From NCBI GenBank assembly GCA_044506615.1, contig JBIQKJ010000010.1:68440-132439 (forward strand): a stretch of 64,000 nt of DNA, written 5' to 3'. This document shows positions 6,523 to 48,812 of the stretch, in pieces. The number at the start of each line of letters is the position of its first letter. Position 1 is the first letter of the stretch. The notes beneath the pieces are model-generated. The model worked only from the letters and a program-made list of their open reading frames with translations. It searched no databases and had not been told where the DNA came from. Position numbers and translations under genes: made by a program. Source of the DNA: Chloroflexota bacterium (GTDB lineage: Bacteria; Chloroflexota; Limnocylindria; Limnocylindrales; CSP1-4).

Positions 6523-6710
6523 GGAACCCTTGCCCCTCCGCCGGAACGTCGCGTCACTCAGCGCTCACCGGCCCTTGGTACCAGGGTACAGACAGTACCT
6601 CAGGTGCCACTCTCTGGGCTCGGGATAGCGGCACACTTCGTCGCGTATCGACAGGGAGGCAAAGAACCCTGAACGGCAGTCACGCGCAGTACACCGACCG
6701 ACGATGGACG

Positions 6711-7946
6711 ATGGGGCTCCTGAGCTTGGCAGCGGCCGGCACGGTCGTTGCCACCGTGATCCGGCTCGTCCTCCTTCCGACCGACGGTCTCCGCGGTGAC
6801 ATCGACCAGTTCGTTGGCTGGGTGAACGGGATCGCCACCAACGGTCTCGGCAGGGCATTCGACCAGGAGCTGACGTTTGGGCCCGTGATCGCGTATGTGT
6901 GGGGCCTACTCGGGGCGGTCGAACCTGCCTTCCAAACCGCCACCGACGCGTCCGACCCGTGGATCCGCTCCTTGATGAAGCTGCCCGCGTCGCTCGCCGA
7001 TTTCGGGCTCGCGGCTGGCGTTCTCTACGGCCTCCGTGCCCGGCCCGCGCTCGCGGTGATCGGCGCCCTCGCGATCCTCTTCCAGCCGGCGACTTGGTAC
7101 GTGAGCGCCTGGTGGGGCCAATGGGAGTCGATGTACACGCTCCTCGCGTTGATCGCGGCGCTCTTCGCGATCGGGGGGCGCGACGGCTTCGCAGCGGCGT
7201 TCGTGGCGGCAGCGGTCCTCACGAAGCCGCAGGCGCTGCCCCTCCTCCTGCCATTCGCCGCCTGGTTCCTCGCAAGGGGAGGTTTGGCCGGCTTCCTGCG
7301 AGTCGCCGCGATCGGGCTTGCGACCGCTGCAGTCATCTGGCTCCCCTTCCTGGCGGCGGGTGGTCCCCTTCAATACCTGCGCGGGATTGGTGAGCTGCAG
7401 GACGAGACGTTCTCGATCCTGTCGCTTCGAGCGTGGAATGTGTGGTGGCTCGTGCAGGAGGCGGCTGCGGGCGGCTCGTTCGCATCCGATCGCACCGCAA
7501 TCCTCGGTCCAATCACGTTCCGACACATCGGATACGGGCTAACCGGGTTGCTCAGCCTGTTCGTCGCATTCCAAGTCTGGCGGCATCCACATCCGCGAAC
7601 CCTCGTCCTGGGGCTCGCCGCGGCGACGCTGATCGCATTCACGTTCCTGACCACAATGCACGAGCGCTACGCATACGCGGCGATCGTGTTCCTCTTGCTG
7701 CTGATCGATGACCGGCTGATCCGCGTTCTCGCGATCGCATTTGGCGTCGTCTTCACGCTCAACCTTCTCGCGGCGGTGCCCGCGACGGTGGCGATCAGTC
7801 AGCTGTTGCCGGTGTCGGGACTCGCGGGCATCGTGGGGTCCGGGTTGCTTGTCTCGCTCACGGTTCTTGTGGTCCTGTTGACGGCTGGCTCGAAGCCCGG
7901 CTCCCTGCCGCTTGAGAAGGTCGGTCTCGGCGAGCCCGCTCGGTGA
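6711..7946 (+). CDS. Polytopic membrane protein, GT-C-like (PIG-V/Alg-type mannosyltransferase-like)
   Basis: ATG 6711 inside ORF 6516..7946. Loop GDIDQFVGWVNGIATNG follows TM1, then more than 10 TM helices. Confidence 0.6.
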   Translation: MGLLSLAAAGTVVATVIRLVLLPTDGLRGDIDQFVGWVNGIATNGLGRAFDQELTFGPVIAYVWGLLGAVEPAFQTATDASDPWIRSLMKLPASLADFGLAAGVLYGLRARPALAVIGALAILFQPATWYVSAWWGQWESMYTLLALIAALFAIGGRDGFAAAFVAAAVLTKPQALPLLLPFAAWFLARGGLAGFLRVAAIGLATAAVIWLPFLAAGGPLQYLRGIGELQDETFSILSLRAWNVWWLVQEAAAGGSFASDRTAILGPITFRHIGYGLTGLLSLFVAFQVWRHPHPRTLVLGLAAATLIAFTFLTTMHERYAYAAIVFLLLLIDDRLIRVLAIAFGVVFTLNLLAAVPATVAISQLLPVSGLAGIVGSGLLVSLTVLVVLLTAGSKPGSLPLEKVGLGEPAR

Positions 7947-8793
7947 CGATACGGGAGAACACCGCGTGCGTTGCGACCGCCACCAAGGCAAGGAGCCCCG
8001 CCCCCTTGACTGGCAGCACGACAACCGCCGCCGCAACTGCGCTGCCTGTCGGTAGAACGAGGGTCGCGTAGTACTGCTGAGCGGATGGCCAAAGGGCCGG
8101 AACAGCCAGCCACGCCGCGTTCGCTCGCCCAACTGCCAAGAGGGCCAAAAGGCCGACAGGCGCGAGCGCAAGATGAAGCGGCATTGGAAGGCTCCAGCCC
8201 GCCTGTTCCTCCAGTCGCCCGTTGATCGCAGCAAGCTCCGAGAAGAAGGTGGGCCAAGGCATGAGTGGAACCGTGACAACCAGGATAAGCAGGGTGAAGG
8301 CAACCGGTCTCCATCGACCGAGGATCACGTCGGGCACGATTGCGTAGATCTTGAGCAGCGCAGCCAGTCCCCCTCCGCCCGCCAAGACCAAGGGCACGAG
8401 CAGTCCCTGTACATTCGCCCCGAGCATTGAGTGAACGAGAGGAGGAAAGAGGAGCCACCAAAGTGGTAAGCCCAGCATCCGCACGGTCGCCAGGCATCCG
8501 GCGACGATGAGAGCCGCCAGCACGAAGAGACCTACGGGCTCCGGCAACATCGCGAGTGGCGCCAATGGCAGGAGCGTCGGAGGAGGGGCCGCGAAGAAGA
8601 CCCCGTCGAGCTCGGTTGTCCACGGATTCTGACCGGCCAGCCAGTTTCGCGATGCGGCGAGATAAAGCTCCCCATCCCCGAGAAGGCGATCGCCCCGCAC
8701 GGCCACCTGCTGAACCCCTACCGCCGAAACAGCCGCAAACCACACGGCCAAGCCGTACCTTCGGAACCACCCGGTGACAAACCGAACGTTCAC
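7858..8793 (-). CDS. DUF2029-like small polytopic membrane protein, paralog family A member 1
   Basis: Motifs GDGELYLAASRNWLAGQNPW, FAAPPPTLLPL, LPLWWLLFPPL, LLKIYA, WPSAQQYY. GTG 8793 overlaps the upstream stop (GTGA). Confidence 0.65.
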   Translation of the reverse strand: MNVRFVTGWFRRYGLAVWFAAVSAVGVQQVAVRGDRLLGDGELYLAASRNWLAGQNPWTTELDGVFFAAPPPTLLPLAPLAMLPEPVGLFVLAALIVAGCLATVRMLGLPLWWLLFPPLVHSMLGANVQGLLVPLVLAGGGGLAALLKIYAIVPDVILGRWRPVAFTLLILVVTVPLMPWPTFFSELAAINGRLEEQAGWSLPMPLHLALAPVGLLALLAVGRANAAWLAVPALWPSAQQYYATLVLPTGSAVAAAVVVLPVKGAGLLALVAVATHAVFSRIVTERARRDRPSQAAGSRASSQPSTGPQEP

Positions 8794-9689
8794 GGTTCAG
8801 CGCGGCGCGTCGCCTCGACGGCACCGAGCACGAGCACGACGACGGGGACGAGCAGCACCACGGGCGTCGCAAGCAGGGCCGCGAGAACCGGCCGGCGCGC
8901 AATCGCGGGGAGCGCCGTCGACACGTAGTAGAACTGCGTTGCCGGGAAAATCGCTGGCACGATGAACCACTCAGCACCCCTTCGCCTGAGAAGCCAGAGT
9001 GCCGCCGCGACGAAGGGCAACAGGATGGGAAGACGCCATGCGCTCCCATTCCAAGCGGTCTGCAGGTGACTCCCGACACCGAGCCCCTGCTCGAGATAGA
9101 GCTGCCAGGGCACGATGATGAGCGCGACACCCAAGGCCAGACAAGCGATCACGAACCGACGAGGATGGAATGCCAAGGGGAGGAGCGCGTACAGCTTCAG
9201 CCCGGCCGCGATTACCCCGGCAACCGGCGTGCCGAGGACCAGCAGCGCAAGCATGATGGTCTGTGGGTTCGCGTTCCAGATCGCATGTGCGAGCGGCGGG
9301 AACAGGACCCACCACATGGGTAGGGATAGGCGTCGAACAAGCCACACCGCAGCGATCACGCCCACGACCATCCATAGGACGACGGACCCGTCGAGCGGGA
9401 AGAGGCTCGTCGGCGCATAGAACAGCAGGGTGTGCGGTCCCGCTGCGTACGGGATCCCGGACTCCGCCACCGCCCACGGATTTTCGCCATTGAGCCAAGC
9501 GTTCGCGGCTCGCTGGTAGTGCCGAGCGTCGATTCCGAGGACGTCGAGCTTGGCGATCCACAGCAGATCAACAACGACAAACCAGGCGGGCAGCCCGATT
9601 CGGCCTAGCGCTGAGCGGAAGGCACCGGTGCGACCAGCGACTCGACCGGCGATGCGATGAAGGTCAGGTGTGTCAAGGCCGGCGGCCAC
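8790..9689 (-). CDS. DUF2029-like small polytopic membrane protein, paralog family A member 2
   Basis: Motifs IDARHYQRAANAWLNGENPW, LPMWWVLFPPL, GLKLYA, FPATQFYY. GTG start 9689 overlaps the end of the GT2 gene. Confidence 0.65.
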   Translation of the reverse strand: MAAGLDTPDLHRIAGRVAGRTGAFRSALGRIGLPAWFVVVDLLWIAKLDVLGIDARHYQRAANAWLNGENPWAVAESGIPYAAGPHTLLFYAPTSLFPLDGSVVLWMVVGVIAAVWLVRRLSLPMWWVLFPPLAHAIWNANPQTIMLALLVLGTPVAGVIAAGLKLYALLPLAFHPRRFVIACLALGVALIIVPWQLYLEQGLGVGSHLQTAWNGSAWRLPILLPFVAAALWLLRRRGAEWFIVPAIFPATQFYYVSTALPAIARRPVLAALLATPVVLLVPVVVLVLGAVEATRRAEP

Positions 9690-10398
9690 GCCGGAGCCTT
9701 CCCATGAACGCGACCTGGTACCAGTGCAGGTAGTGCGGGAGCCACTTGCGAAGCTTGAAGTTGCTCTGGCCTGCGGTGCGATCGCGCCAAGTCGTCGGCA
9801 CTTCGGCGACGCGCCGCCCTTCGAGCGTTGCCTTGACCGTCAGCTCCAGTGCCAACTCGAAGCCGGCCGTGCTCTCGATCGTGGTCGCGTCGAGGAAGCG
9901 CCGGCTGTAGAGCTTGAAGTTGTTCGTCGGGTCATGGGTCGGGACGCCGGCGAACCAGTGGAGCGTCAGCCCGGCGACGCGGCTCATCAGGCGCTTGAGC
10001 GGAGGACCGCCGATCTGCCGGCCGCCGGGCATGTAGCGCGAGGCCGCCACGACGTCGGCACCCTCCTCAGCGAGCCGCACCATGCTGTCGACGACGTGCG
10101 GCTCGTCCGACCCGTCGGCCATCGAGATCAGCACGTACGACCCCTGTGACGCGGCGATCCCGGCCTTCATCGCGTTGAGCACGCCGCGCCTGAGGTCGTT
10201 GCGAAGCCCGCGGATGGTCGGCAGCTCCGCAGCGAGGCGGTCGATCACGGGCACCGTGGGATCCTCCTCGAAGTCGTAGACGACGAGGATCTCGTGCGAC
10301 GTCGTGATGCCGGCCGTCGTCGCCCGCAGGACGGGCTCGACGGCTTCGCCCTCCTTGAAGACGGGCATCACCACGGACAGCCGAGTTTTCGAAGTCAT
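9673..10398 (-). CDS. GT2 glycosyltransferase, polyprenyl-phosphate mannose/glucose synthase-like (DPM1/Ppm1-like), soluble
   Basis: ATG 10398 (MTSKTRLSVVMPVFKEGEAV). ILVVYDFEEDPT, ISMADGSDEP (DXD-like), TNNFKLY. The upstream part of ORF 9673..10728 is Arg-rich and probably non-coding. Confidence 0.8.
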   Translation of the reverse strand: MTSKTRLSVVMPVFKEGEAVEPVLRATTAGITTSHEILVVYDFEEDPTVPVIDRLAAELPTIRGLRNDLRRGVLNAMKAGIAASQGSYVLISMADGSDEPHVVDSMVRLAEEGADVVAASRYMPGGRQIGGPPLKRLMSRVAGLTLHWFAGVPTHDPTNNFKLYSRRFLDATTIESTAGFELALELTVKATLEGRRVAEVPTTWRDRTAGQSNFKLRKWLPHYLHWYQVAFMGRLRRGRRP

Positions 10399-10421
10399 GT
10401 TCTGTGCTCGATCCCCTTCGG

Positions 10422-10994
10422 TCACGGACGTGGCTGCCCGACGGACGACAGCTCGAATTCTGATTGTGGCCGGCGGAGCGCTGTCCATACGATCCGTTCC
10501 GGGACGCCGTCGATCGTGGTGTCGTACGAACGTTCGGAAATCTGCTGGAACCCAAATCTGCGGTGGAGCTCCAGGACCGGACGGTTCGTGGCCCGGGTCC
10601 TGCCACCGATCTCCTCCAGCCCGAGCACACCGAAGCCGTATTCGATCGCCTCCGCCTCCATGGCGATCCATGCGGGCAGCAGGGCGCCCCTTCGTTCGAG
10701 CCCTTCGATGTCGAGGAAGAACCCCCACTCCGCTGATCGGCGGTCGGCCTCAACGGTGAACATCACGACTCCGTAAGGTGCGCCATCGAACTCGAACACG
10801 AGCACGCGTCGTGCCGGGTCCCTGCTCACCCGCGACCACCAAGCCGCGTGCTCCTCCGGGCTGATGAACGCGGTGTGGATGTACGCCGCGCGGACCCTCG
10901 GATGGTTTCGCCAACGACGGATCTGGTCGAGATCCGCGACGCCAGCATCACGGAGCACTAGGACTTCCTCCCCACGGATCGGGTGTTGCCACAA
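10422..10994 (-). CDS. GNAT family N-acetyltransferase (PseH/WecD-like)
   Basis: LRDAGVADLDQIRRWRNHP ... GVVMF ... acetyl-CoA-fold pattern RGALLPAWIAMEAEAIEYGF. Start is uncertain (TTG 10994 or GTG 10958). Confidence 0.75.
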   Translation of the reverse strand: MWQHPIRGEEVLVLRDAGVADLDQIRRWRNHPRVRAAYIHTAFISPEEHAAWWSRVSRDPARRVLVFEFDGAPYGVVMFTVEADRRSAEWGFFLDIEGLERRGALLPAWIAMEAEAIEYGFGVLGLEEIGGRTRATNRPVLELHRRFGFQQISERSYDTTIDGVPERIVWTALRRPQSEFELSSVGQPRP

Positions 10995-11064
10995 CGCTAC
11001 ACTCAGCCGGCTTGGTTGCCCCTAGCCCCCACGTCCGGACGAGAACTAGGACCTGCGCGACGGA

Positions 11065-11304
11065 ATGACAGATCTCGACAAACTTCGCGAGGCGTTTCGC
11101 GAGGCCCTGTTCCTGGATGAGACCGCGGACGTCGATGCCCTTGAATATCGCGGTATCGAGCAGTGGGACTCGCTCGCGCACCTCACCCTCGTCGCCAAGG
11201 TGGAAGACACATTCGACCTGATGCTGACCACCGACGAGGTCATCGATCTGAGCTCATTCCAGGTCGCTCGGCGCATCCTCGCCAGCCACGGTGTCGATGT
11301 CTGA
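11065..11304 (+). CDS. Acyl/peptidyl carrier protein
   Basis: 79 aa, acidic, with a phosphopantetheine-site-like motif EQWDSLAHLTLV. Confidence 0.75.
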   Translation: MTDLDKLREAFREALFLDETADVDALEYRGIEQWDSLAHLTLVAKVEDTFDLMLTTDEVIDLSSFQVARRILASHGVDV

Positions 11305-12043
11305 GTCATTCGATCGCATCGCCTTCGTCACCGGCTCGTCCCGGGGGATCGGCCAGGCGATTGCCACCGAGCTTGCCGGACGCGGGCATGCGGTGATCGT
11401 CCACGCGCGCGAACCGGGCTCTGCCACGGACGTCGCGATGGAGATCCAGGAGCGCTTCGGAGTTCCCGTGATAGCGGTCCACGGCGACGTCGGTGACCAC
11501 GGGGCGATGCAATCGATCGCCGCCGAGGTGTTCCAGCGCTTTCGCCGCCTCGACGCCCTAGTTGTGAATGCCGGGGTGCACGAGGCATCGCTGCTGGGGA
11601 TGATCGACCCGTCGACGGCAGAGCGGGTGTTCTCGGTGAATGCCCTCGGCGCCCTGTACACCCTGCAGGCGTTCGTCCGATTGCTTCGTCGCGGCCGGAA
11701 TCCTGCTGTGGTGCTCACGTCCTCGATCATGGGCGTCAACGGAGCCGCCGGCCAGACCGTGTACTCAGCCACGAAGGCGGCACTGATCGGTCTTACCCAC
11801 GCGGCCGCGAAAGAGCTCGGCCCGATCGGGTGCCGGGTGAACGCGATCGCCCCGGGGTTCATCGAGACGGACATGACCGCGACCCTCAGCGAGGAGGAGC
11901 GGGAGGTCCGGATCCGTTCGACCCCGCTGGGGCGGTTCGGGCTCCCGAGCGAGGTAGCGGCCGTCGTCGCCTTCCTCCTGTCTGACCAGGCATCGTTCGT
12001 CACCGGCCAGGTGATCGGGGTGGACGGCGGAGTCACGGTGTGA
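11297..12043 (+). CDS. Short-chain dehydrogenase/reductase, 3-oxoacyl-ACP reductase (FabG)-like
   Basis: ATG 11297 overlaps the ACP stop. VTGSSRGIGQAIA, NAG, YSATKAAL (YxxxK), PGFIETDM. Confidence 0.85.
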   Translation: MSESFDRIAFVTGSSRGIGQAIATELAGRGHAVIVHAREPGSATDVAMEIQERFGVPVIAVHGDVGDHGAMQSIAAEVFQRFRRLDALVVNAGVHEASLLGMIDPSTAERVFSVNALGALYTLQAFVRLLRRGRNPAVVLTSSIMGVNGAAGQTVYSATKAALIGLTHAAAKELGPIGCRVNAIAPGFIETDMTATLSEEEREVRIRSTPLGRFGLPSEVAAVVAFLLSDQASFVTGQVIGVDGGVTV

Positions 12044-13443
12044 TCCCGGCTTTCGCAGGGGCTCGGATCGTGGAGGCATCCACCGGCCGGGTGCTGGAGG
12101 CGGGCGAGTTGCGAGACGAGATTCACCGGGCCAGCGCCGACCTCCAGCGGGTTCCGCCCGGGGTCGTCTTCATTCGAGCCGCTCGAGGCTTGCCGGCGAT
12201 CGTCGGCTATCTGGGCGCGCTGGACGCGCGGCGCCCGGTGGCGCTGCTCGATCCTGCCACCGCAGACGACCTGCTCGCGGGCTACGTTGGTCGCTATCTT
12301 CCCTCCGCGATCCACCCGTGGGAAGGGGATGTGCCCGATTGGGCCGTACCACTCGGCTATCGCGCCGCGAGCATCCCGGGTCTCGGGACCGCGCTCGTGT
12401 CGGGGTCCACCGGGCCGGAGACGCACCCGGATCTCGCCGTGCTCCTGCCGACCTCCGGCTCTACCGGGGACCCGCGCTTCGTCCGCCTCTCCCGGGCGGC
12501 GATCGAGGCGAACACAAATGCCATCGTGGAGACCCTGGGGATCACCGAAGCCGACGTGGTTGTAACCGCATTGCCGGTTTTCTACAGCTACGGGATGTCC
12601 GTGCTGAACACCCACCTGGCCGCCGGAGCGACCGTGGTCCTCTCCGACGATGGCCTGGCTAGTCGCACCTTCTGGAGCGTCGTGGACGAGTTTGGCGTCA
12701 CGACGCTGTCGTTGGTGCCGGCCCACTTCCACATCCTCGAGCGCCTGCGCTTCGACCCGAGGAGCCATCGGGCGTTGCGGACGCTCACGCAGGCGGGGGG
12801 TCGGCTGAGAACGGAATCAGTCCTGGACTTCCACGACCGGCTCCGCCCGATCGGGGGCAGGCTCTTCGTGATGTACGGCCAGACGGAAGGCGGGCCACGG
12901 CTCACGACGCTGCCGCCCTCGATGCTTCCCGCGAAGGCCGGCTCCGTCGGCCTGCCGCTTCCAGGCGGGAGCATTGCGATCGCCACGGACAGCGGTACAA
13001 CCACCGAGCCGCGGGTGGCAGGCGAGGTGGTCTACCGCGGGCCTAATGTGATGATGGGCTACGCACTGGATCGCGCCGATCTGGCGCTCGGCGACGAAAT
13101 GGGCGGCGAGCTGCACACCGGGGACGAAGGTGTCCTCGACGGGGACGGGTGCCTCACGATCGTCGGCCGGAGAAACCGCATCGCGAAGGTGTCCGGTGTG
13201 CGCGTGAACCTCGACGACATCGAGCGGCTCTTGACCGGCCCCGAACGAGTCGTCGCCGTGTCCGGCGAGGACAGCATCACCATCTGGTGTGAAGCCGATC
13301 CCGAGGCCCTGCGGAAGCGCGTGGTCGCCCTGGCCCTGGATCTGCGGCTCCATCCGTCGGGCTTCGAAGTCCGGCAGATCCGCGAGGTTCCGATAATGCC
13401 GAACGGCAAGGTCGACTACCGGCGCCTGGGAGCGCTGTCTTGA
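12040..13443 (+). CDS. Adenylate-forming AMP-dependent synthetase/ligase
   Basis: GTG 12040 overlaps the SDR stop. Motifs LLPTSGSTGDPRFV, YGQTEG, HTGDEG, PNGKVDYRRL. Confidence 0.8.
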   Translation: MIPAFAGARIVEASTGRVLEAGELRDEIHRASADLQRVPPGVVFIRAARGLPAIVGYLGALDARRPVALLDPATADDLLAGYVGRYLPSAIHPWEGDVPDWAVPLGYRAASIPGLGTALVSGSTGPETHPDLAVLLPTSGSTGDPRFVRLSRAAIEANTNAIVETLGITEADVVVTALPVFYSYGMSVLNTHLAAGATVVLSDDGLASRTFWSVVDEFGVTTLSLVPAHFHILERLRFDPRSHRALRTLTQAGGRLRTESVLDFHDRLRPIGGRLFVMYGQTEGGPRLTTLPPSMLPAKAGSVGLPLPGGSIAIATDSGTTTEPRVAGEVVYRGPNVMMGYALDRADLALGDEMGGELHTGDEGVLDGDGCLTIVGRRNRIAKVSGVRVNLDDIERLLTGPERVVAVSGEDSITIWCEADPEALRKRVVALALDLRLHPSGFEVRQIREVPIMPNGKVDYRRLGALS

Positions 13444-14504
13444 CTTACCCGTTTGAACGCTCGCAGGCGCAGCGCGAGGAGACGCTGCTTCCCCGTCTCG
13501 TCGCGCTGACGGAGCATCACCGCGAGCGGTGCGAGCCCTACGCGGCCATCCTGCGTGCCATCGGGCATTCGACCTCCACCGACTACCAGAGCGTGGCCGA
13601 ACTCCCATGGCTCCCGGTACGTCTGTTCAAGCTCCTGCAGCTCAGTTCCGTCCGGCCCGAGGATGTGTTTCGGGTGCTGACCTCAAGTGGCACAACCGGC
13701 GAAGCGAGCAGGATCTATGTCGATCGGGCGGCGGCAGCAGCGCAGGCGAAGGCGCTCGCGGACACGATGAAGGCCGTCCTCGGTCCGGACCGCCTTCCGA
13801 TGCTGATCGTAGACGGCCAAGGCCTCTTCAAGAACAGGCACAGCTTCTCGGCACGAGGCGCGGGCGTTCTCGGGATGATGAACTTCGGCCGCGACCACGC
13901 CTGGGTCCTCGATGCAGAGGGCCATCCCCAGCCGAACGAGATCAAGGACTTCCTCGCACGGCACGGGAATTCGCCGTTCCTCGTCTTCGGCTTCACGTTC
14001 ATGGTCTGGCGATTCCTGTACGAGATCGCCCGAGCTGAGTCGCTCGACCTGTCAAACGGGAGCCTCATTCACTCGGGCGGCTGGAAGCGCATGACCGAGA
14101 TCGCCGTCGACAAGGCGGAGTTCCGCGAGCGGTTCCGGCGCGACACGGGCCTGACGCGGATCCACGACTTCTACGGGATGGTCGAGCAGATCGGGGTGGT
14201 ATATCTGGAGGGCGCCGAAGGCGGCTCCTACTACTGCCCGGACTTCGCCGACGTCGTCGTGCGCGACCCGGAGACCTGGGAAGTGGCTCCGATCGGGACA
14301 CCCGGCGTCCTGCAGGTGATCAGCGCGTTGCCGGAGTCGTATCCGGGACACGTTCTGTTGACCGAGGACCTAGGGGTCATCCATGGCATCGATGACGGCA
14401 CCTGGCCCGGCAAGCGCTTCTCGGTGCTCGGCCGGCTGCCGAAGGCCGAGGCGCGAGGCTGCAGCGACACGTCGGACGCTGGGGCGCCGCGTGTGACGAA
14501 CTGA
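13440..14504 (+). CDS. LuxE-like acyl-protein synthetase
   Basis: TTG 13440 overlaps the ligase stop (TTGA). ELPWLPVRLFK ... VLTSSGTTGEASRIYVD ... LIHSGGWKR match the LuxE family pattern as I remember it. Confidence 0.7.
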   Translation: MTYPFERSQAQREETLLPRLVALTEHHRERCEPYAAILRAIGHSTSTDYQSVAELPWLPVRLFKLLQLSSVRPEDVFRVLTSSGTTGEASRIYVDRAAAAAQAKALADTMKAVLGPDRLPMLIVDGQGLFKNRHSFSARGAGVLGMMNFGRDHAWVLDAEGHPQPNEIKDFLARHGNSPFLVFGFTFMVWRFLYEIARAESLDLSNGSLIHSGGWKRMTEIAVDKAEFRERFRRDTGLTRIHDFYGMVEQIGVVYLEGAEGGSYYCPDFADVVVRDPETWEVAPIGTPGVLQVISALPESYPGHVLLTEDLGVIHGIDDGTWPGKRFSVLGRLPKAEARGCSDTSDAGAPRVTN

Positions 14505-14505
14505 C

Positions 14506-15735
14506 TTGAGCATCGACGTCCTCCTCCCGACGCGACGGCAGGTCAGCCTCGAGGAGCTGACTGCGGAGATCGCCCGGCGGGCGAACGACGACCACCTCGC
14601 CGTCGGGGATGGGCGCGCACGCACCGTCCTCGAGGAGGTGTCGTCCAGGCTGCTCGGGTCACGAGCCATCCGCCGGTTCCCGGAGCTCGGCGCGCTCGGG
14701 TTCTTCCTTCGTCGCAGCGAGCTCAGCCGGATCGTGGAGCGCTCCTCCCCGGCGGGCGAACTCGTCCTCGTACCGAGGGGACTGGTTGTTCACTTTCCAC
14801 CGGCGAACGTGGACACGATCTTCGCGTACTCGTGGTCGCTGTCGTTGCTCGCCGGCAACCGAAACGTCGTTCGGCTGTCGTCCCGGGCCGGTCCAGCCGC
14901 CACCGCACTCGTCGAACTGCTTGCGGATGTCCTCGCTCAGGCAGACCCGGCCGTGCGCGACTCGCAGCGTGTCGTGACATACGCGCACGATGACGCCATC
15001 ACGGCCGGACTGATTGCGATCGCCGACGTTCGCGTTGCCTGGGGAGGCGACCGGGCGGTGAATGCTCTGCGGTCGGCGCCGCTCACGCCTCTTGCTCGAG
15101 ACGTGGCCTTCCCCGACCGATCGTCGTTCGCCGCGATCAATGTCGCCGCCCTCGCGGGAGCGGACAATGCTCGCAGAGAGGCGCTCGCGGAGCAGCTCGC
15201 AACAGACGTGTTCTGGTTCGACCAAGCGGCGTGTTCCTCCCCGCGCGTCGTCTTCTGGGTTGGCGATCTCGTCCAGGCACTGGGCCTGCGGGCATCCCTC
15301 ATGGCTCAGGTCGCCACGGCCGCGAAGCGACGCGGGTTCACGCTCGAGCCGGCCATGGCGGTCGAGCAGCGGGTTCAAGCCCTACGCCTCGCCGGCGACG
15401 GTGTCGCCACAAAGGTCGAGTTCGTCGGCAACATGCTCGCTTCGTTCGAGCTCGAGCCCGATGCGCCGTTGCCGCGCGGTTGGCTGGGCAGCGGCGTGCT
15501 CGCCCACGTGGACATCGCCACGCTGGCTGAGGTCGAGCGATACTTGACTCGCCGCGACCAGACCCTGACCCACTTCGGGTTCACGCCCGAAGAGCTGCGG
15601 GTTCTGCTCGACCACGCTGGCGATCGAGCGCCGGACCGGATGGTGCCGATCGGCCACGCGCTGTCGTTCGAAGCGATCTGGGACGGGCACGATTTGCTCC
15701 GCGAATTCACTCGAACGGTCGTGTTCAGGCCATGA
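14506..15735 (+). CDS. LuxC-like acyl-CoA/acyl-carrier reductase
   Basis: TTG 14506, 2 nt after the LuxE stop. VVHFPPANVDTIFAYSW ... WFDQAACSSPRVVFWVG (catalytic-Cys context). Position after LuxE fits. Confidence 0.65.
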   Translation: MSIDVLLPTRRQVSLEELTAEIARRANDDHLAVGDGRARTVLEEVSSRLLGSRAIRRFPELGALGFFLRRSELSRIVERSSPAGELVLVPRGLVVHFPPANVDTIFAYSWSLSLLAGNRNVVRLSSRAGPAATALVELLADVLAQADPAVRDSQRVVTYAHDDAITAGLIAIADVRVAWGGDRAVNALRSAPLTPLARDVAFPDRSSFAAINVAALAGADNARREALAEQLATDVFWFDQAACSSPRVVFWVGDLVQALGLRASLMAQVATAAKRRGFTLEPAMAVEQRVQALRLAGDGVATKVEFVGNMLASFELEPDAPLPRGWLGSGVLAHVDIATLAEVERYLTRRDQTLTHFGFTPEELRVLLDHAGDRAPDRMVPIGHALSFEAIWDGHDLLREFTRTVVFRP

Positions 15736-15758
15736 TCCGTAGCGTCGTGCGCCAGTAG

Positions 15759-17711
15759 ATGGCCGAACGCCTCGTCGCGGACGGAGCAGCATTCCTCGCC
15801 GATCCAACGACTTGGATCAGCCTTGCTGCGGCTCTGACGATGATGATCGGGTCGTTGGGGGTTGGCATCGTCGCCGGGCGACGGATCGGACTATTCAACC
15901 GCGAGAGTCCCGTTTTGACCGTGTTCGGCCTCGGTCTAGGTCTGGGACTCCTGGTCATCACGCTCGCCTACGCGACCCTCCGATCACTCGGTGGCTCGAC
16001 GTACCTCCCGAGCGCCGTCCTTCTCGCAGCGACGCTGGTCCTCGGGCGCAGCCCGCTGATGCCCGGCGCGCCTCGTCGAGGCCTCGTGGCGCTCACGGTG
16101 GTTGCGTCCGGGTGCCTCTTCGTCGGTGCCGCGGCCTACGGGATGACGCTGGCACCCAGCCCACGGGATGGCCTCCAGCCGATCGAGTTCATGGATCCCG
16201 CCTTCTATGCGGTGCTCGGCTGGACCCTGGTCGACACGGGTGTCGAGTCGACGGTTGCGCACACGGGGATGAGCCAACTCGCGGGACAAGCGTCGCAGGC
16301 GTCGTACCACTGGGGGGAGATCTGGCTCGCAGCACTGGCGCTCAACTTCCCGGGCGTCACGCCGATGTCCGCGCGTCACGTCGTTGCGTTGCCGCTCGTC
16401 ATCCTCGCCACGACCGCATTGGTCGCCGGTCTCGCGGCCCAGGGGGTGCGCCGTGCCGAACGACGAGAGGCGGCTGTTCTTGCGGCAGTCGGCATGGCCG
16501 GCGTTGCCCCGATCCCGTTCTGGCTCGACCTGCACTTCGACTGGTGGGCGCGGCCGATCGGCTTCTCCGCGACGCTCTACGGTCTCGCGTACGTGGTGGC
16601 CGGGCTCGGCCTCATGCTGGCGCTGCGTGGTCGACACACGTGGACCCTCGCCACGTCCATGCTCGCAAGCGCGCTCACCGCGGCCTTGGTGGCATCACAC
16701 GTACTCGTCGCGGCGGTTGCTGCCGTCGGTGTCGCGGTGGGCTGGCTGGCATGGCTCGTGGTCACCAACGCCCCGCCAGGGCCCGCCCTTCGATCAGTGC
16801 GCATGCCCGTGGTCGCGTGCCTCGTGGGCGGGGTAGCAACCGTTGCCTGGGGCTTCCTCACAGGGCACGGGCTCGGGGCAGAGTCGCCCGTCCCCGGCGT
16901 TGCTCCGTTCGATTGGGCCTGGCGGCGGGCAATGCTCCTGACAACCGTCGGCGGGGGCGTGCTGATCGTGGGAGTCGTCCTGGCCGTGCGAGAGCGCAGG
17001 TCGAACCCGCGCCTCGCCGCCATTGCCATCGGTTCCACAGCCGCGGTCGGTTTGGGCGCGTTGTTATGGGGCTGGCGCCTCGCCGAGTTCAACATGTTCC
17101 ACATCTACTACGGAGCGATCGCCGTCCTGCTCACTCCCGTGGCCGTCCTCGCCACTGCCGTCACCCTCGTCCACGCCAGGCGGGATGGCTCCGGACGAGT
17201 CAGGGCCGTCCTGGCCACGTTGGTGTTTGCCCAGATTTCGATCGGCCTCGGCGCGACCGTCCAACGGCTCTATGAGTTCGGCCCTGGCCACTACGACCCG
17301 GTTCCAGTTGCGGTTCTCGATGAGATCAAATCCCTGCCCGAAGGGGCTCGCCTGGCGTACTCCTGCGACGAGATCGAGGAGGTCGCCCCGTGGGATGCTC
17401 GATTGATCAGCCTGACCGCCCACACGGGGCGGCCGGTAGTCGCGATGTGCTTCCAGGTAGATGTCTTCGGGGCCCAGTTGGGGGTTCTGCCGCCCGACCT
17501 CACGCGGATGAACCCCTTCTTCGCGTCCGCGCCGCAGCGTGACCTCTACCCTCGATCGGGCGCCAAGCCCACGACGGCGGAGATTCTGGCGTTCCTCGAG
17601 CGGTACGACATCGACTTCATCTACGAGGACGCCGACCATCCGAACCGGCTGCTACCCGACGCTCGACCTCGCTTCTCGATTGGTGCAGTGACGATCTATG
17701 AGGTGCCCTGA
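15759..17711 (+). CDS. Large polytopic membrane protein (about 14 TM) with C-terminal soluble domain; polymerase/GT-C-like, unclassified
   Basis: ORF 15759..17711 is continuous hydrophobic helices followed by a ~150-aa hydrophilic tail. Last gene of the ACP-LuxCE operon. Confidence 0.6.
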   Translation: MAERLVADGAAFLADPTTWISLAAALTMMIGSLGVGIVAGRRIGLFNRESPVLTVFGLGLGLGLLVITLAYATLRSLGGSTYLPSAVLLAATLVLGRSPLMPGAPRRGLVALTVVASGCLFVGAAAYGMTLAPSPRDGLQPIEFMDPAFYAVLGWTLVDTGVESTVAHTGMSQLAGQASQASYHWGEIWLAALALNFPGVTPMSARHVVALPLVILATTALVAGLAAQGVRRAERREAAVLAAVGMAGVAPIPFWLDLHFDWWARPIGFSATLYGLAYVVAGLGLMLALRGRHTWTLATSMLASALTAALVASHVLVAAVAAVGVAVGWLAWLVVTNAPPGPALRSVRMPVVACLVGGVATVAWGFLTGHGLGAESPVPGVAPFDWAWRRAMLLTTVGGGVLIVGVVLAVRERRSNPRLAAIAIGSTAAVGLGALLWGWRLAEFNMFHIYYGAIAVLLTPVAVLATAVTLVHARRDGSGRVRAVLATLVFAQISIGLGATVQRLYEFGPGHYDPVPVAVLDEIKSLPEGARLAYSCDEIEEVAPWDARLISLTAHTGRPVVAMCFQVDVFGAQLGVLPPDLTRMNPFFASAPQRDLYPRSGAKPTTAEILAFLERYDIDFIYEDADHPNRLLPDARPRFSIGAVTIYEVP

Positions 17712-17713
17712 CC

Positions 17714-18838
17714 TCAGTCGAGGGAAAGCAGGACGGCCTCGATGACGCCGTCCAGGTGGTCCTCGAGGCCGAGCCACACCGGAAGGCGAAGGAGTCGCTC
17801 GCTCGCGGCGTTCGTGTTCTCAAGGTCACCGCTCGCGCGCCCGACCTGACGCCCGTAGGGCGACGAGTGCAGCGGCACGTAGTGGAATACCGACTGCACC
17901 CCTCGGTCGCGGAGCCGGTCGATCGTCGCCGTGCGAGCCTCGAGATCCCGGAACAGCAGGTAGTAGAGGTGCGCGTTGTGCGTCCGACCTTCGGGAACGA
18001 GGGGCCTGCGGACGAGGCCACGCGCTTCTGCCTCGGCGAAGGCCTCGTGGTATCGGCTCCAGATTGCTAGGCGCCGTGCCGTGATCTCCTCAGCGTGCTC
18101 GAGCTGTGCGTAGAGGAACGCCGCAATGATCTCCCCGGGCAGATACGACGAGCCGATGTCCACCCAGGTGTACTTGTCGACCTCGCCTCGGAAGAACTGG
18201 CTGCGGTTCGTCCCCTTCTCGAGGATCACTTCGGCCCGAGCGGCAAGTTGAGCGTCGTTGACGAGAAGTGCGCCGCCTTCGCCCGAGATGACGTTCTTGG
18301 TCTCGTGGAACGACACGGCCGCGAGGTGCCCGTAGCTGCCCACCGGGCGCTCGTGGTACGTGGACATGAGACCCTGCGCGGCGTCCTCAACGACCATCAG
18401 GCCGTGGCGGGTCGCGATGTCCATGATTGCGTCCATCTCGGCCGACACGCCCGCGTAGTGCACGGGTACCAAAGCCCGCGTGCGGGGCGTGATCGCGTCC
18501 TCGATGCGTCGCTCATCGATGTTCAGCGTATCTGGCCTGATGTCCACGAAGACCGGCGTGGCGCCGCGCAGAACGAATGCGTTGGCGGTCGACACGAACG
18601 TGAAGGAGGGAAGGATCACCTCGTCGCCATGGCCGACGCCGCTCAGGATGGCCGCCATCTCGAGCGCGCCCGTGCAGGAATGGGTGAGCAGCGCTCGCGC
18701 CGAGCCCACCCGCTGCTCCAGCCACCGCGAGCAGAGTGCTGCGAACTCGCCCTGTCCGGCCAGGTGGCCGTTCTCGTAGGCCCGCTGGACATACTCCAGC
18801 TCCCTGCCAGTCATGAACGGCTTGTTGAACGGGATCAC
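17714..18838 (-). CDS. DegT/DnrJ/EryC1 aminotransferase, WecE-like (dTDP-4-keto-6-deoxyhexose 4-aminotransferase)
   Basis: GTG 18838 overlaps the upstream stop (GTGA). VIPFNKPFMTGRELEYV, PSFTFVSTANAFVLRGA, SFHETKN (PLP Lys), EKGTNRSQFFRGEVDKYTW. Close to E. coli WecE from memory. Confidence 0.9.
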   Translation of the reverse strand: MIPFNKPFMTGRELEYVQRAYENGHLAGQGEFAALCSRWLEQRVGSARALLTHSCTGALEMAAILSGVGHGDEVILPSFTFVSTANAFVLRGATPVFVDIRPDTLNIDERRIEDAITPRTRALVPVHYAGVSAEMDAIMDIATRHGLMVVEDAAQGLMSTYHERPVGSYGHLAAVSFHETKNVISGEGGALLVNDAQLAARAEVILEKGTNRSQFFRGEVDKYTWVDIGSSYLPGEIIAAFLYAQLEHAEEITARRLAIWSRYHEAFAEAEARGLVRRPLVPEGRTHNAHLYYLLFRDLEARTATIDRLRDRGVQSVFHYVPLHSSPYGRQVGRASGDLENTNAASERLLRLPVWLGLEDHLDGVIEAVLLSLD

Positions 18839-19710
18839 GGAGCCTGGTCCCGCTCGGCCGCGACGAGCAGGGACCCGCCGGCTGGAAACGACAGGCCCGC
18901 CTCGATGAGCCGACGCTCGAGCAACATCACGGGTCGAAGCAGAGCATCGATCGGTGCGGACACGGTCAGCGCGTCGACTCCATCCCGCTCCTCGGGGGCC
19001 CGCTCGCGCAGCCTCGCAAGCATCATGGCCGGCAGAAGCAGCGACACGAACGACGACATCCGACGCAGACGGAAACCCGCGGACTCCAACCTGCGGGCAA
19101 GCTGCTTTGCGACATACCGGCGCCGGTGGGACGCGCGCTCGTCCTGGGCGCTCCACAGGGCGGGGTGCTGCGGCACCGTCAGCAGGAGTCCGCCACCGGG
19201 TCGGAGCGCGCGGTGGAACATGCGCAACGCACCGAGATCGTCGTCGAGGTGCTCGATGACATCGAAGGCTCCGACCAGATCGAATTCCTCCACGAAGGGC
19301 ATTCGCGCCACGTCCACCTGGAGCAGCTTGATGTCGGGGTGGCGTGACCGAGCGATCTCCAACCCCTCGACGAGGACGTCACTGCCGGAGACCGTCGCGT
19401 CCGGCAGGGCGCGGCGCAGCGCCGAGAGAACATAGCCGGTGCCGCATCCTGCTTCGTGGACAGTTCGGCTGCTTGGGAAGTAGCGCCGCGCGGCCCACAT
19501 CACGAGCTGGTTCCGCGCCCGGAACCAGAAGCTTCCATCCTCCAGGCCGGCCAGCCCTTCGAAGTGGCCGGGATCGAAGCCGACCGATTCGAAGGCAAGA
19601 TCCGGGGCGAAGGCGGCAAATCCGCGAACGACCGAGGGGGCGAACCCACAGTCCTCGCACTTCCACTGTCCGTCACATCGGGCCGAACCACAGGCTGCAC
19701 ACGCCTTCAC
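18835..19710 (-). CDS. Class I SAM-dependent methyltransferase with N-terminal zinc-ribbon
   Basis: CxxC...CxxC (CAACGSARCDGQWKCEDCG), VHEAGCGTGYV, FDLVGAFDVIEHL, LRPGGGLLL. GTG 19710 overlaps the GT2 stop. Confidence 0.8.
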   Translation of the reverse strand: MKACAACGSARCDGQWKCEDCGFAPSVVRGFAAFAPDLAFESVGFDPGHFEGLAGLEDGSFWFRARNQLVMWAARRYFPSSRTVHEAGCGTGYVLSALRRALPDATVSGSDVLVEGLEIARSRHPDIKLLQVDVARMPFVEEFDLVGAFDVIEHLDDDLGALRMFHRALRPGGGLLLTVPQHPALWSAQDERASHRRRYVAKQLARRLESAGFRLRRMSSFVSLLLPAMMLARLRERAPEERDGVDALTVSAPIDALLRPVMLLERRLIEAGLSFPAGGSLLVAAERDQAP

Positions 19711-20720
19711 GGACGTTCTGCTGACCCTTCGTGGTCATCGGTCGTCGCGCGCACCACGTAAGTTGGGCGGTCCATCGTTCGGAAGTGAACCCGAGACAGG
19801 TACTCCCCGATGATCCCCAGGGCGAAGAGCTGCGCTCCACTGAAGATCGCGATGATCGACGCAATGAAGGCGAATCCCGGTACGGAGCTCCCGCCGTTGA
19901 CGAGGAAGCTGATCAGGACGTACGCCAGCACCAGGAGCCCGAACACGGTGAAGGCGAACCCGATGAGGCTGGCAACTTGCAGCGGGAACGTGCTGTAGGC
20001 GGTCATCACGTTCATCGCGTGACTGATGAGTGACCTGAGCGTGTAGTTCGAGCGTCCGTTCGCTCGCGGTTCGTGACGAACTTCCACGTGCGTGAACTTC
20101 GTGGTCCCCCAGGACAACAGCGCATCCAGCGCCACAAAGGGGCCCCGATACGCCTCGAATGCGGTGCGAAGCTCGGTGCGAAGCGCTCGAAATGCGCTCA
20201 CGTGGCGTGCAGTCTCCGCACCCATCACGCTCTGCAAGGCGAGCTTTGTGATCCGTGACGCCTGGTCTCGCAGAAAGCCGTGCTGCTCCCGATCCGGCGT
20301 CCCGTAGACGACGTCCATCCCGCCGGATAGCGCTGCCAGAAGTCGGGGTATCTCTTCCGGCGGGTTCTGCAGATCATCATCGATGGTGACCACGACGCTG
20401 TAGGTGGCCGCCCGGATGCCGCAGAGAAGGACGTGGTGCTGCCCGAAGTTGCGGCTCATCTGGAAGCCTCGGACACGCTCGTCGGTGGTTGCGATCTCCC
20501 GGATGACGCTCCACGAGGCGTCGCCGCCGCCATCCTCCACGAGCAGGATCTCGTAGGGAAGCCCAAGGTCCACCATAACGGCCGTGAGCCGCTGGTGGAG
20601 GTCGGGCAGCGTCGTCGCGGATCGGTAGACGGGCACGACGACCGAGACGCCGGACGGCAGCTCGGCTGGCTCCAAGGCATCCGTTGCTACGCGGCGCTCG
20701 ATGTGCCCGTTCAGGATCAA
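19707..20720 (-). CDS. Bitopic GT2, ArnC/GtrB-like polyprenyl-phosphate sugar transferase
   Basis: TTG 20720 overlaps the epimerase stop (TTGA). VSVVVPVYRS, ILLVEDGGGD, RNFGQHHVLLCG, TIDDDLQNPPEEIPRL, two C-terminal TM helices. The rest of ORF 19707..21926 is a shadow of the next gene. Confidence 0.85.
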   Translation of the reverse strand: MILNGHIERRVATDALEPAELPSGVSVVVPVYRSATTLPDLHQRLTAVMVDLGLPYEILLVEDGGGDASWSVIREIATTDERVRGFQMSRNFGQHHVLLCGIRAATYSVVVTIDDDLQNPPEEIPRLLAALSGGMDVVYGTPDREQHGFLRDQASRITKLALQSVMGAETARHVSAFRALRTELRTAFEAYRGPFVALDALLSWGTTKFTHVEVRHEPRANGRSNYTLRSLISHAMNVMTAYSTFPLQVASLIGFAFTVFGLLVLAYVLISFLVNGGSSVPGFAFIASIIAIFSGAQLFALGIIGEYLSRVHFRTMDRPTYVVRATTDDHEGSAERP

Positions 20721-21739
20721 AGCCGGCCTGCCTCCAGCTCGGCCCGGATCCACGGGATCACCTCGTCGAGCATCTGGTCGAGGGTCGTCGTCGCCTCGAA
20801 GCCGAGGACCTCGCGTGCCTTCCGGACGTCGGGGACACGCAGCTGGACATCGTGCTCGAACGGCGGGTCGGAGACGTAGCGGAACGGTCGGTCGGGACCG
20901 TGGATCTTGCGCCAGATCGCCTCGGCCAGCTCGAGCACGGTCGTCGAGGCCGCCGTCGAGAGGTTGAAGTCCTCGTTGATCGCCTTCGGTGACTCCATCG
21001 CGAGGCGGATGCCGTGGGCGAGGTCGCCGCCGTAGGTGTAGTGCCGGACCTGGTTGCCCTCGCCGAGGATGTGCAGCGGGTCCTGGCCCTTGAGCACCTT
21101 GAGCACGAGGTCGGGCACCACGTGTGAGAGGGCGAGCTTGACGTTCCCGCTCATCACGTCGGTGTCGCGGAGGGCCCGGCGCTCGCCGATCCCGACACAG
21201 TTGAACGGTCGCACGATCGTGTATGGCAGCTGGTACTGCTCCCAGGCGCCCTTCGCGAAGTACTCCGACGCGAGCTTCTGGAAGCCGTAGGTCGAGATCG
21301 GTGGCGGCGAGGTCAGCTGGGCGCCCTCGGGCGTCGGGAAGACATCGGACGACTCGTACACCATCGACGAGCTCATGACCACGATGCGCTCGAGATGGCC
21401 GTGCTCGTGGGCGGCGATCGCGGCTTCGAAGGTCGAGGCGAGGATGCGCTCGTTCTCGGCCATGAGGTCGAAGGCGAACTCGTGGAAGTAGCTGATCCCG
21501 CCGATCATCGCGGCGGCCGCGACGACCTGGTCGCAGTCGGCGGCGAGCTCGGTCAGGAGGCCCCGATCCTTCGCGTCGCCCTCGACGAAGCGGTAGCACG
21601 GGTGGCTGTCGTACGACTTCGCCAGCCGGCCGTACTTGCTGAAGTCGTCGACGCCGATGACCTCGTGGCCGGCCTCGAGAAGCTCCGGGACCAGATAGCC
21701 GTTGATGAACCCGGCGGCGCCGGTGATGAGGATGCGCAT
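20717..21739 (-). CDS. NAD-dependent nucleotide-sugar epimerase/dehydratase (extended SDR)
   Basis: MRILITGAAGFINGYL and a YGFQK catalytic dyad context. Confidence 0.85.
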   Translation of the reverse strand: MRILITGAAGFINGYLVPELLEAGHEVIGVDDFSKYGRLAKSYDSHPCYRFVEGDAKDRGLLTELAADCDQVVAAAAMIGGISYFHEFAFDLMAENERILASTFEAAIAAHEHGHLERIVVMSSSMVYESSDVFPTPEGAQLTSPPPISTYGFQKLASEYFAKGAWEQYQLPYTIVRPFNCVGIGERRALRDTDVMSGNVKLALSHVVPDLVLKVLKGQDPLHILGEGNQVRHYTYGGDLAHGIRLAMESPKAINEDFNLSTAASTTVLELAEAIWRKIHGPDRPFRYVSDPPFEHDVQLRVPDVRKAREVLGFEATTTLDQMLDEVIPWIRAELEAGRL

Positions 21740-21799
21740 CGAGGTTCGGCCTCTTCTGGTGTCGCCGGATCCCGGCGCTAGCGTGGGTTGACGAGCCGA

Positions 21800-46317: not shown

Positions 46318-46362
46318 GCGCGACCGTAGCGTGCCCGGCGGGGCGAGAAGGGGTGTGAATCA

Positions 46363-47775: not shown

Positions 47776-47796
47776 CACGGAAGGAGCAACCGGACC

Positions 47797-48810: not shown

Positions 48811-48812
48811 CC

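Follow-up and report, generated by a model that had tools for sequence, protein, structure and literature searches.

A LuxE/LuxC-type cassette beside a PseH-like acyltransferase in a Chloroflexota glycan locus: a probable N-acylation module for an amino sugar

A stretch of 64,000 nucleotides from a Chloroflexota bacterium (assembly GCA_044506615.1, contig JBIQKJ010000010.1, positions 68,440 to 132,439; hereafter the window) contains a cassette of five genes for a dedicated acyl carrier protein (ACP), a FabG-like short-chain dehydrogenase/reductase (SDR), an adenylate-forming ligase, a LuxE-family acyl-protein synthetase and a LuxC-family thioester reductase, with a gene for a PseH-like Gcn5-related N-acetyltransferase (GNAT) running divergently in front of them. 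The cassette very probably serves as a donor module for the N-acylation of an amino sugar; together with the GNAT, and within a surface-glycan locus, it would probably form a plug-in module that makes a small hydroxy-acyl group for that sugar. The evidence consists of the gene identities, the intact catalytic residues, the conserved synteny, the recurrent pairing with acyltransferases, a natural exchange for an acetyltransferase and the gene fusions among relatives. The cassette arrangement itself is common and has long been noted; the window is one more example of it, of the actinobacterial type, in which a PseH-like GNAT occurs together with a sugar of the WecE type and a GT-C family that is rare. 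The GNAT and the plus-strand genes are as follows.

10422..10994, minus strand: PseH-like GNAT, 190 amino acids (aa), putative N-acyltransferase drawing its acyl group from the cassette ACP
11065..11304, plus strand: dedicated ACP, 79 aa, with the attachment serine S36 in the motif WDSL
11291..12043, plus strand: FabG-like SDR, proposed aldehyde (or keto) reductase
12040..13443, plus strand: ANL-superfamily adenylate-forming ligase, 467 aa, proposed to load the acid onto the ACP
13440..14504, plus strand: LuxE-family acyl-protein synthetase (PF04443, alignment with 7xc6_E)
14506..15735, plus strand: LuxC-family thioester reductase (PF05893, alignment with 7xc6_A)
15759..17711, plus strand: predicted GT-C-fold membrane glycosyltransferase, 650 aa, last gene of the operon (AlphaFold2 (AF2) model and Foldseek)

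In the map of open reading frames (ORFs), the plus-strand junctions either overlap by 4-14 nt or leave gaps of 1 nt (LuxE/LuxC) and 23 nt (LuxC/membrane protein), and the six plus-strand genes are therefore tightly packed, as an earlier note made from the DNA letters alone had described them. The gene coordinates and families given in that note also agree with the ORF map and the Pfam results presented below.

Families and catalytic residues of the cassette proteins

The LuxE-like protein matched PF04443 over residues 3-344 with 170 bits (Pfam cut-off 24.9, E = 9e-50). Its C-terminal cysteine C341 (ARGCSD) aligned on the KGCS motif of 7xc6_E, from the solved LuxC-LuxE complex of Photobacterium, the PDB match having an E value of 1.6e-11, and both the P-loop TSSGTTG (residues 81-87) and the RGCSD motif with C341 were invariant in 15 sequences. 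The LuxC-like protein matched PF05893 with 102 bits (Pfam cut-off 21, E = 4e-29), the match covering model positions 86-263 of 401 alone; its C243 (FDQAACSS), at least 97% conserved in 84 sequences, aligned on the active-site motif YDQQACFS of 7xc6_A. Against the NCBIfam equivalogs for true LuxE and LuxC (NF052244 and NF052251), the window proteins reached 62 versus 550 and 49 versus 750 bits, respectively. Because these scores lie far under the equivalog cut-offs, the two proteins are family members rather than orthologues of the bioluminescence enzymes; the LuxE and LuxC assignments, for which the earlier note had proposed a hidden Markov model check, thus hold at the level of the Pfam families. 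The 44 window ORFs scanned contained neither a luciferase (PF00296) nor a protein of the LuxD type, in agreement with the earlier remark that luxA, luxB and luxD are missing. The gene context and the wide gap to the orthologue thresholds led to the rejection of a role in bioluminescence or fatty-aldehyde formation.

The SDR matched adh_short_C2 in Pfam with 194 bits, and its triad S145, Y158 and K162 is conserved among homologues. Its top NCBIfam equivalog was TIGR01830 (223.5 bits versus 297.75), and every FabG equivalog stayed below its cut-off. The ligase matched the Pfam family AMP-binding with 134 bits, and the TSGSTG P-loop, the TGD motif and K457 (the A10 lysine) are conserved among its homologues. 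Its best PDB matches were the stand-alone adenylation enzyme 3wvn and oxalate-, o-succinylbenzoate- and malonyl-CoA ligases, so that the nearest solved relatives use dicarboxylic acids or load stand-alone carriers, which would fit a small acid as the substrate. The ACP remained below the Pfam threshold (PP-binding_2, 18 versus 32 bits); its profile (71 homologues) aligned with E. coli AcpP end to end over 72 columns (hhalign probability 90.8%), with S36 falling on the phosphopantetheine serine (Ser36) of AcpP and with W34, D35 and S36 at least 97% conserved in the 71 sequences. The GNAT matched Acetyltransf_3 in Pfam (36 versus 25.4 bits) and stayed below the PseH equivalog TIGR03585 in NCBIfam (66.6 versus 93.1 bits), while its best PDB match was PseH itself (4xpk, E = 8.7e-6). 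At the sequence level, the ACP serine, the LuxE and LuxC cysteines, the SDR triad and the P-loop and A10 lysine of the ligase are all intact.

Distribution, acyltransferase partners and a natural exchange

The cassette was searched for in one genome per species with two strict peptide patterns, and at least 549 species-level genomes matched; the 80 best loci were all actinomycete. Locus counts rest on 85 fetched loci, and acyltransferase pairing on 83 actinomycete loci with a colinear cassette. The order ACP-SDR-ligase-LuxE-LuxC was colinear in 83 of the 85 fetched loci. More than 7,900 LuxE-like relatives were present in a 90%-clustered protein collection (1,800 representatives at 50% identity), and the closest ones among the matches listed (64-72% identity) all came from actinomycetes. 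The same gene order was also found on a Deinococcus plasmid, where the cassette lies between glycosyltransferase genes and an acetyltransferase gene, and on a Ponticoccus (alphaproteobacterial) plasmid; Rhizobium plasmids carry the cassette in a rearranged form. The earlier note had suggested such a survey in other phyla. In published work, 98 Aeromonas strains are described as having the same five genes in the same order right after pseH (PMC7874193), and 71-80 Enterobacteriaceae strains as having the block as well (PMC4875605). Together with a 1995 proposal for Vibrio cholerae, discussed below, these reports contradict the idea that the arrangement was undescribed.

An acyltransferase was located within 3 kb of the cassette in 76 of the 83 actinomycete loci. 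The partner was either a hexapeptide-repeat enzyme directly upstream (46 loci) or a PseH-like GNAT (30 loci), and never both in one locus. The GNAT was placed divergently upstream, as in the window, in 19 of the 30 loci and just downstream of LuxC in the other 11, and these cassette-adjoining homologues share 47-55% identity with the window GNAT. The cassette adjoins PseB/PseC-type amino-sugar genes in the seven loci without a detected acyltransferase, and its partner in Deinococcus is a sugar N-acetyltransferase of the NeuD/PglB/VioB family, scoring above the cut-off. DegT-type aminotransferases lie within 10 kb of the cassette in nearly all fetched loci (77/85). The order in Dactylosporangium is like that in the window, with the GNAT, the cassette, an orthologue of the ArnC-like GT2 right after LuxC, GtrA, a WecE-like aminotransferase and a large membrane protein. 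The SDRs of GNAT-adjacent loci are 48-62% identical to the window SDR, and those of most hexapeptide-linked loci 42-48% (up to 54%); the two cassette subtypes, GNAT-linked and hexapeptide-linked, could make different acyl groups.

Two metagenome contigs from a close relative (L089 and L090) contain the same sugar genes with a different acylation gene. Their epimerase is 86-88% and their GT2 (GT2a) 80% identical to those of the window. Both have the aminotransferase, the methyltransferase and the ArnC-like GT2, and the 650-aa GT-C protein has a homologue in them; a WecD-like acetyltransferase stands in place of the cassette, which is absent. The cassette with its GNAT therefore acts like an exchangeable alternative to a simple N-acetyltransferase. 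Both this exchange and the acyltransferase pairing fit the earlier proposal that a dedicated carrier is loaded with an acyl group, which an amino sugar then receives.

Natural fusions among the LuxE relatives join LuxE with LuxC, an AMP ligase with LuxE, all three as LuxE-LuxC-AMP ligase, and an iron-containing alcohol dehydrogenase (Fe-ADH) with LuxE; in the last of these (P0279) the alcohol dehydrogenase is full-length. The fused proteins (P0279, P0137, P0174 and P0138) are of non-actinomycete origin, named sources including Parachlamydiaceae and Bacteriovoracales. The fusions suggest that the ligase, LuxE, LuxC and alcohol dehydrogenase activities belong together, and that an alcohol-forming step follows the aldehyde made by LuxC.

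The sugar module, its delivery genes and the surrounding region

Convergent to the cassette operon run the genes for an aminotransferase, a methyltransferase, an ArnC-like GT2, an epimerase-family protein and a nucleotide-sugar dehydrogenase.

17714..18826, minus strand: WecE-type dTDP-4-keto-6-deoxyhexose 4-aminotransferase (NCBIfam), putative source of the amino-sugar acceptor
18835..19710, minus strand: S-adenosylmethionine-dependent methyltransferase of the sugar module (Pfam matches Methyltransf_23, _25 and _11)
19707..20738, minus strand: ArnC/PgfS-like GT2 of the polyprenyl-phosphate sugar synthase type (NF007986 ArnC and PgfS, below cut-off)
20717-23008, minus strand: epimerase/dehydratase-family protein and nucleotide-sugar dehydrogenase, downstream of the ArnC-like GT2

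The aminotransferase passed both WecE equivalogs in NCBIfam (NF008687, 573 versus 375 bits; TIGR02379, 559 versus 435 bits) and is far closer to WecE than to ArnB (573 versus 210 bits), bearing out the earlier statement that a 4-amino-sugar pathway adjoins the cassette. The methyltransferase also stands next to the aminotransferase in L089, L090 and a further locus, L088, with 51-57% identity. The GT2 at 19707-20738 reached 179 bits for ArnC (NF007986) and 160 bits for PgfS, both under the equivalog cut-offs. The epimerase-family protein and the nucleotide-sugar dehydrogenase might supply a second sugar (uronic acid or pentose) to the second GT2. Their adjoining position had also hinted at a pathway of the 4-amino-4-deoxy-L-arabinose (Ara4N) type, with a UDP-pentose; this was rejected as the principal explanation, since the aminotransferase clearly belongs with WecE and the similarity to ArnA and UXS was weak.

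The 650-aa membrane protein matched no family in Pfam or NCBIfam and belongs to a very rare family, with five homologues in a collection of 5.8 billion proteins. Since there was no family match and so few homologues, its function is predicted from its fold, as modelled by AF2 with moderate quality and compared with known structures. The model (predicted local distance difference test score, pLDDT, 73; predicted template modelling score, pTM, 0.80) found GT-C enzymes as all seven top Foldseek matches in the PDB, among them AftA, ArnT, STT3, DPY19, PglB and ALG9, with E values from 4e-8 to 3e-3 and template modelling scores (TM-scores) of 0.36-0.50. The protein is thus predicted to be a GT-C-type glycosyltransferase. 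A motif in an acidic loop, RDGxQPxEFxDxAxY (R136-Y150), is invariant in the six homologues, and the model places a soluble alpha/beta domain at the C terminus (residues 517-650). The homologues always adjoin the WecE-like aminotransferase, the methyltransferase and the ArnC-like GT2 (L088, L089 and L090), and in L088 LuxC is followed by two tandem GT-C paralogues and then by the sugar genes as in the window. The combination of an ArnC-like GT2 and a GT-C fold marks a locus type in which polyprenyl phosphate receives a sugar on the inner side of the membrane and a GT-C enzyme transfers that sugar outside, and such a route appears reasonably likely for the sugar of the window.

The stretch of about 16 kb that holds the block (6-22 kb) has a G+C content of about 0.66, lower than that of its flanks (0.69-0.74). 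A promoter and terminator scan of 10300-18000 gave nothing exceeding the shuffled expectation. Upstream of the block lie a second, DPM1-like GT2 (9673-10380) and four successive multi-span proteins of 272-476 aa (5704-9689), which have no Pfam family above threshold and include one weak Alg6/Alg8 match; because they adjoin the DPM1-like GT2, they may be further GT-C-type transferases. Envelope-glycan genes are also found beyond the cassette, namely those for an Acetyltransf_6/Mig-14-like protein (26657-27895, minus strand), a GT87 enzyme (31276-32382, minus strand) and a PMT_2 GT-C enzyme (36165-37766, plus strand), and for this reason the glycosylation region is taken to extend over about 5-38 kb. 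Two proteins of the fused MFS/spermidine-synthase family flank the glycan region on both sides (2360-4600, plus strand, 746 aa; 28942-31218, minus strand, 758 aa).

Further on, a Tad/Flp-type pilus set at 45070-49739 encodes a CpaE-like response-regulator ATPase, a T2SSE ATPase and two T2SSF proteins, and an IS1595-family transposase follows it (50488-51441). No flagellin genes were found among the window ORFs scanned. LPG_synthase_TM (MprF-flippase-like) proteins often adjoin the cassette in actinomycete loci (beside LuxC in L002, L004, L059 and L071), and could in that position flip a lipid-linked sugar; the LPG_synthase_TM protein of the window is encoded at 60302-61537, about 45 kb from the cassette.

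Proposed chemistry, rival explanations and known systems

The following route could connect the cassette with the sugar genes. (i) LuxE would adenylate a small acid at one carboxyl group (malate or another dicarboxylic acid would be the simplest case), and the acyl group would move via the C-terminal cysteine of LuxE onto the cysteine of LuxC; (ii) LuxC would reduce the thioester to an aldehyde with NAD(P)H; (iii) the SDR would reduce the aldehyde to an alcohol, yielding a hydroxy acid; (iv) the ANL ligase would adenylate the remaining carboxyl group and load the hydroxy acid onto the dedicated ACP; (v) the PseH-like GNAT would use the loaded acyl group to acylate the dTDP-4-amino-4,6-dideoxyhexose formed by the WecE-type aminotransferase at its 4-amino group; (vi) the methyltransferase would decorate the sugar; (vii) the ArnC-like GT2 would place the sugar on polyprenyl phosphate, from which, after flipping, the 650-aa GT-C-fold protein would transfer it to an envelope acceptor. 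We infer which acid is used, in what order steps (i)-(iv) run, that the GNAT draws on acyl-ACP rather than acyl-coenzyme A (acyl-CoA), where methylation takes place and which acceptor receives the sugar. The reduction chemistry is proposed because two activating enzymes, a reductase, a dehydrogenase and a carrier exceed what is needed for attaching a ready-made acid; that a hydroxy acid is first made by reduction and then loaded is a tentative proposal, which may well prove wrong. The earlier note had offered reduction to an aldehyde and transfer to an amino sugar as alternatives; both steps are kept here, and they are more likely successive, the carboxyl group being turned into an alcohol before loading and transfer.

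A close parallel is the tetronate pathway of V. cholerae O1, wbeK-O (rfbKLMNO). There, the 4-amino group of perosamine, a 4-amino-4,6-dideoxyhexose, is acylated with 2,4-dihydroxybutanoate (tetronate), in a pathway proposed in 1995 (Morona et al. 1995, Gene 166:19). In published accounts, the tetronate derives from malate, and WbeL, a ligase of 471 aa, activates it for transfer to CoA or to the carrier RfbK; wbeL is required for the O1 antigen, and this is the genetic support for a pathway that is otherwise given as a proposal. The window resembles this system in its 4-amino-4,6-dideoxyhexose acceptor, its dedicated carrier and its ligase of about 470 aa (WbeL 471, window 467). The 1995 paper and the N16961 annotation reportedly have RfbN as LuxE/LuxC-like with two domains, RfbM as an iron alcohol dehydrogenase and RfbO as acetyltransferase-like. 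In the window, by contrast, LuxE and LuxC are separate, an SDR takes the place of the Fe-ADH as reductase and a PseH-like GNAT would be the transferase; instead of GDP-perosamine there is a dTDP-linked sugar (WecE type), and delivery would involve an ArnC-like GT2 and a GT-C protein rather than the O-antigen route through an ABC transporter. Compared by description, all the roles of the tetronate module have candidates in the window, while the dehydrogenase and transferase families differ.

The orf1-5 block in the flagellin glycosylation islands of Enterobacteriaceae and of Aeromonas group II, which codes for an ACP, a 3-oxoacyl-ACP reductase, an AMP-dependent synthetase, LuxE and LuxC, again compared by description, has the same order and also lies beside a PseH-type GNAT in a glycan locus. 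Those islands modify the pseudaminic acid of flagellin in Gram-negative bacteria, with a function that is putative there, whereas the window is of high G+C content, has cassette relatives that, among those listed, are all actinomycete, and combines a dTDP-4-amino-6-deoxyhexose with predicted polyprenyl-phosphate/GT-C delivery. The LuxCDE reductase of bioluminescence (7xc6) shares the same two families, and both acyl-accepting cysteines are kept in the window proteins; in the window, however, LuxD, LuxA and LuxB are missing from the scanned ORFs, and the partners of the two proteins are instead a sugar acyltransferase, an SDR, an ACP and a further ligase. The Arn pathway likewise comprises an aminotransferase, the N-acylation of a nucleotide-linked amino sugar, an ArnC-type transfer to polyprenyl phosphate and an outside transfer by an ArnT-type GT-C enzyme. 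Its acyl group, however, is a formyl group that comes from ArnA and is later removed, and its sugar is a UDP-pentose; among the scanned ORFs, ArnA reached just 38 bits (with the epimerase-family protein), and neither a formyltransferase nor an ArnD-type match was found.

Several points weigh against the proposed route. The window yielded no dTDP-glucose synthase and no clear 4,6-dehydratase, and the GT-C model is moderate, being built on a six-sequence alignment with a pLDDT of 73 and TM-scores of 0.43-0.50. The best matches of the SDR are FabG-type 3-oxoacyl-ACP reductases, which is compatible with a 3-hydroxyacyl product. As the LuxE and LuxC of bioluminescence use C14 fatty acids, family membership gives no reading of the acyl chain length. 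The likeness to WbeK-O and to Aeromonas orf1-5 rests on published descriptions. A hint in favour of the route comes from the flagellin glycan of Aeromonas AH-3, which contains a 376.14-Da pseudaminic acid (Pse) derivative and an unexplained 102-Da unit: the computed masses of Pse plus acetyl plus C4H6O3 (376.148 Da) and of C4H6O3 (102.032 Da) coincide with them, though in composition only, an O-methylglyceroyl group being isomeric and the organism a different one. The literature found on cassette members holds genomic descriptions and no biochemical characterisation, so that the earlier remark on a lack of biochemical description for this chemistry appears to hold in the literature searched.

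The foremost rival is a decoration with a 3-hydroxyacyl group or lipid ('liposugar'), in which the ACP receives a fatty acid or a 3-oxo acid from the ligase, the SDR acts as FabG, the GNAT transfers the 3-hydroxyacyl group, and LuxE and LuxC supply or recycle a fatty acyl group or aldehyde. On the one hand, the SDR is most FabG-like (TIGR01830), the Aeromonas and Enterobacteriaceae authors themselves suggested a lipid component (PMC7874193, PMC4875605), and the viosamine island of Pseudomonas syringae (vioA, vioM, vioT, vioS, vioB, vioR and acp) makes N-(3-hydroxybutanoyl)-viosamine with an ACP, the FabG-like VioR and an acyltransferase, as supported genetically and by mass spectrometry. The window resembles that island in its 4-aminotransferase, methyltransferase, ACP, FabG-like reductase and N-acyltransferase, and may be likened to it in outcome, the product there being an N-hydroxyacyl, O-methyl 4-amino-4,6-dideoxyhexose. 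On the other hand, P. syringae builds its acyl group with the 3-ketoacyl-ACP synthase III VioS and has no AMP ligase, LuxE or LuxC, and its soluble VioT transfers to the flagellin rhamnan; no ketosynthase was noted in the cassette neighbourhoods inspected, where no probe for one was run. This, together with the Fe-ADH-LuxE fusions of relatives, is why the SDR is proposed as an aldehyde reductase: the aldehyde from LuxC is more likely its substrate than a 3-oxoacyl group, contrary to the earlier suggestion that the SDR hints at a 3-hydroxyacyl group. A 3-hydroxyacyl or lipid product would also leave the second activating enzyme and the reductase without a role, and Pse plus acetyl plus myristoyl would weigh 484 Da, whereas the Aeromonas units are of 376 and 102 Da. 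We therefore regard it as unlikely.

Still less probable is an aldehyde as the end product, possibly tethered to the ACP and then transaminated or condensed (e.g., to an amino-acyl or N-alkyl substituent). LuxC-family enzymes do stop at the aldehyde, and the DegT-type aminotransferases that accompany most cassettes are pyridoxal phosphate-dependent; however, the aminotransferase of the window is clearly a WecE-type sugar enzyme, the SDR is a constant member of the cassette (83 of 85 loci), and fusions with alcohol dehydrogenase exist. That the cassette is unrelated to the glycan and belongs to a fatty aldehyde, fatty alcohol or small-metabolite pathway merely located there is highly improbable: the family names do point to fatty-acid reduction and the link to the sugar comes from genomic context, but the cassette lies steadily beside sugar acyltransferases and aminotransferases across phyla, the GT-C gene begins 23 nt after LuxC on the same strand with the LuxC-to-GT-C order shared by L088, and a relative has a WecD-like acetyltransferase replacing the cassette.

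The preferred explanation is an exchangeable N-acylation module for a surface amino sugar. The cassette is among the more widespread of the biochemically uncharacterised glycan-tailoring modules, occurring in hundreds of actinomycete species. The cholera O1 antigen, at which vaccines are aimed and to which phages bind, has it in a related form. There is also a smaller and rather doubtful prospect that the window holds an undescribed Arn-like route in a high-G+C bacterium, with a GNAT using acyl-ACP, an acyl group derived from a reduced dicarboxylate and placed on a dTDP-4-amino-4,6-dideoxyhexose, passage of this sugar over polyprenyl phosphate, and transfer by a rare GT-C enzyme to an envelope polymer or protein; if that were true, the acyl group could be one new to bacterial glycans. 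The exclusive acyltransferase partners, the acetyltransferase swap and the alcohol dehydrogenase fusions together yield a testable scheme in which an acid would be reduced, loaded and transferred.

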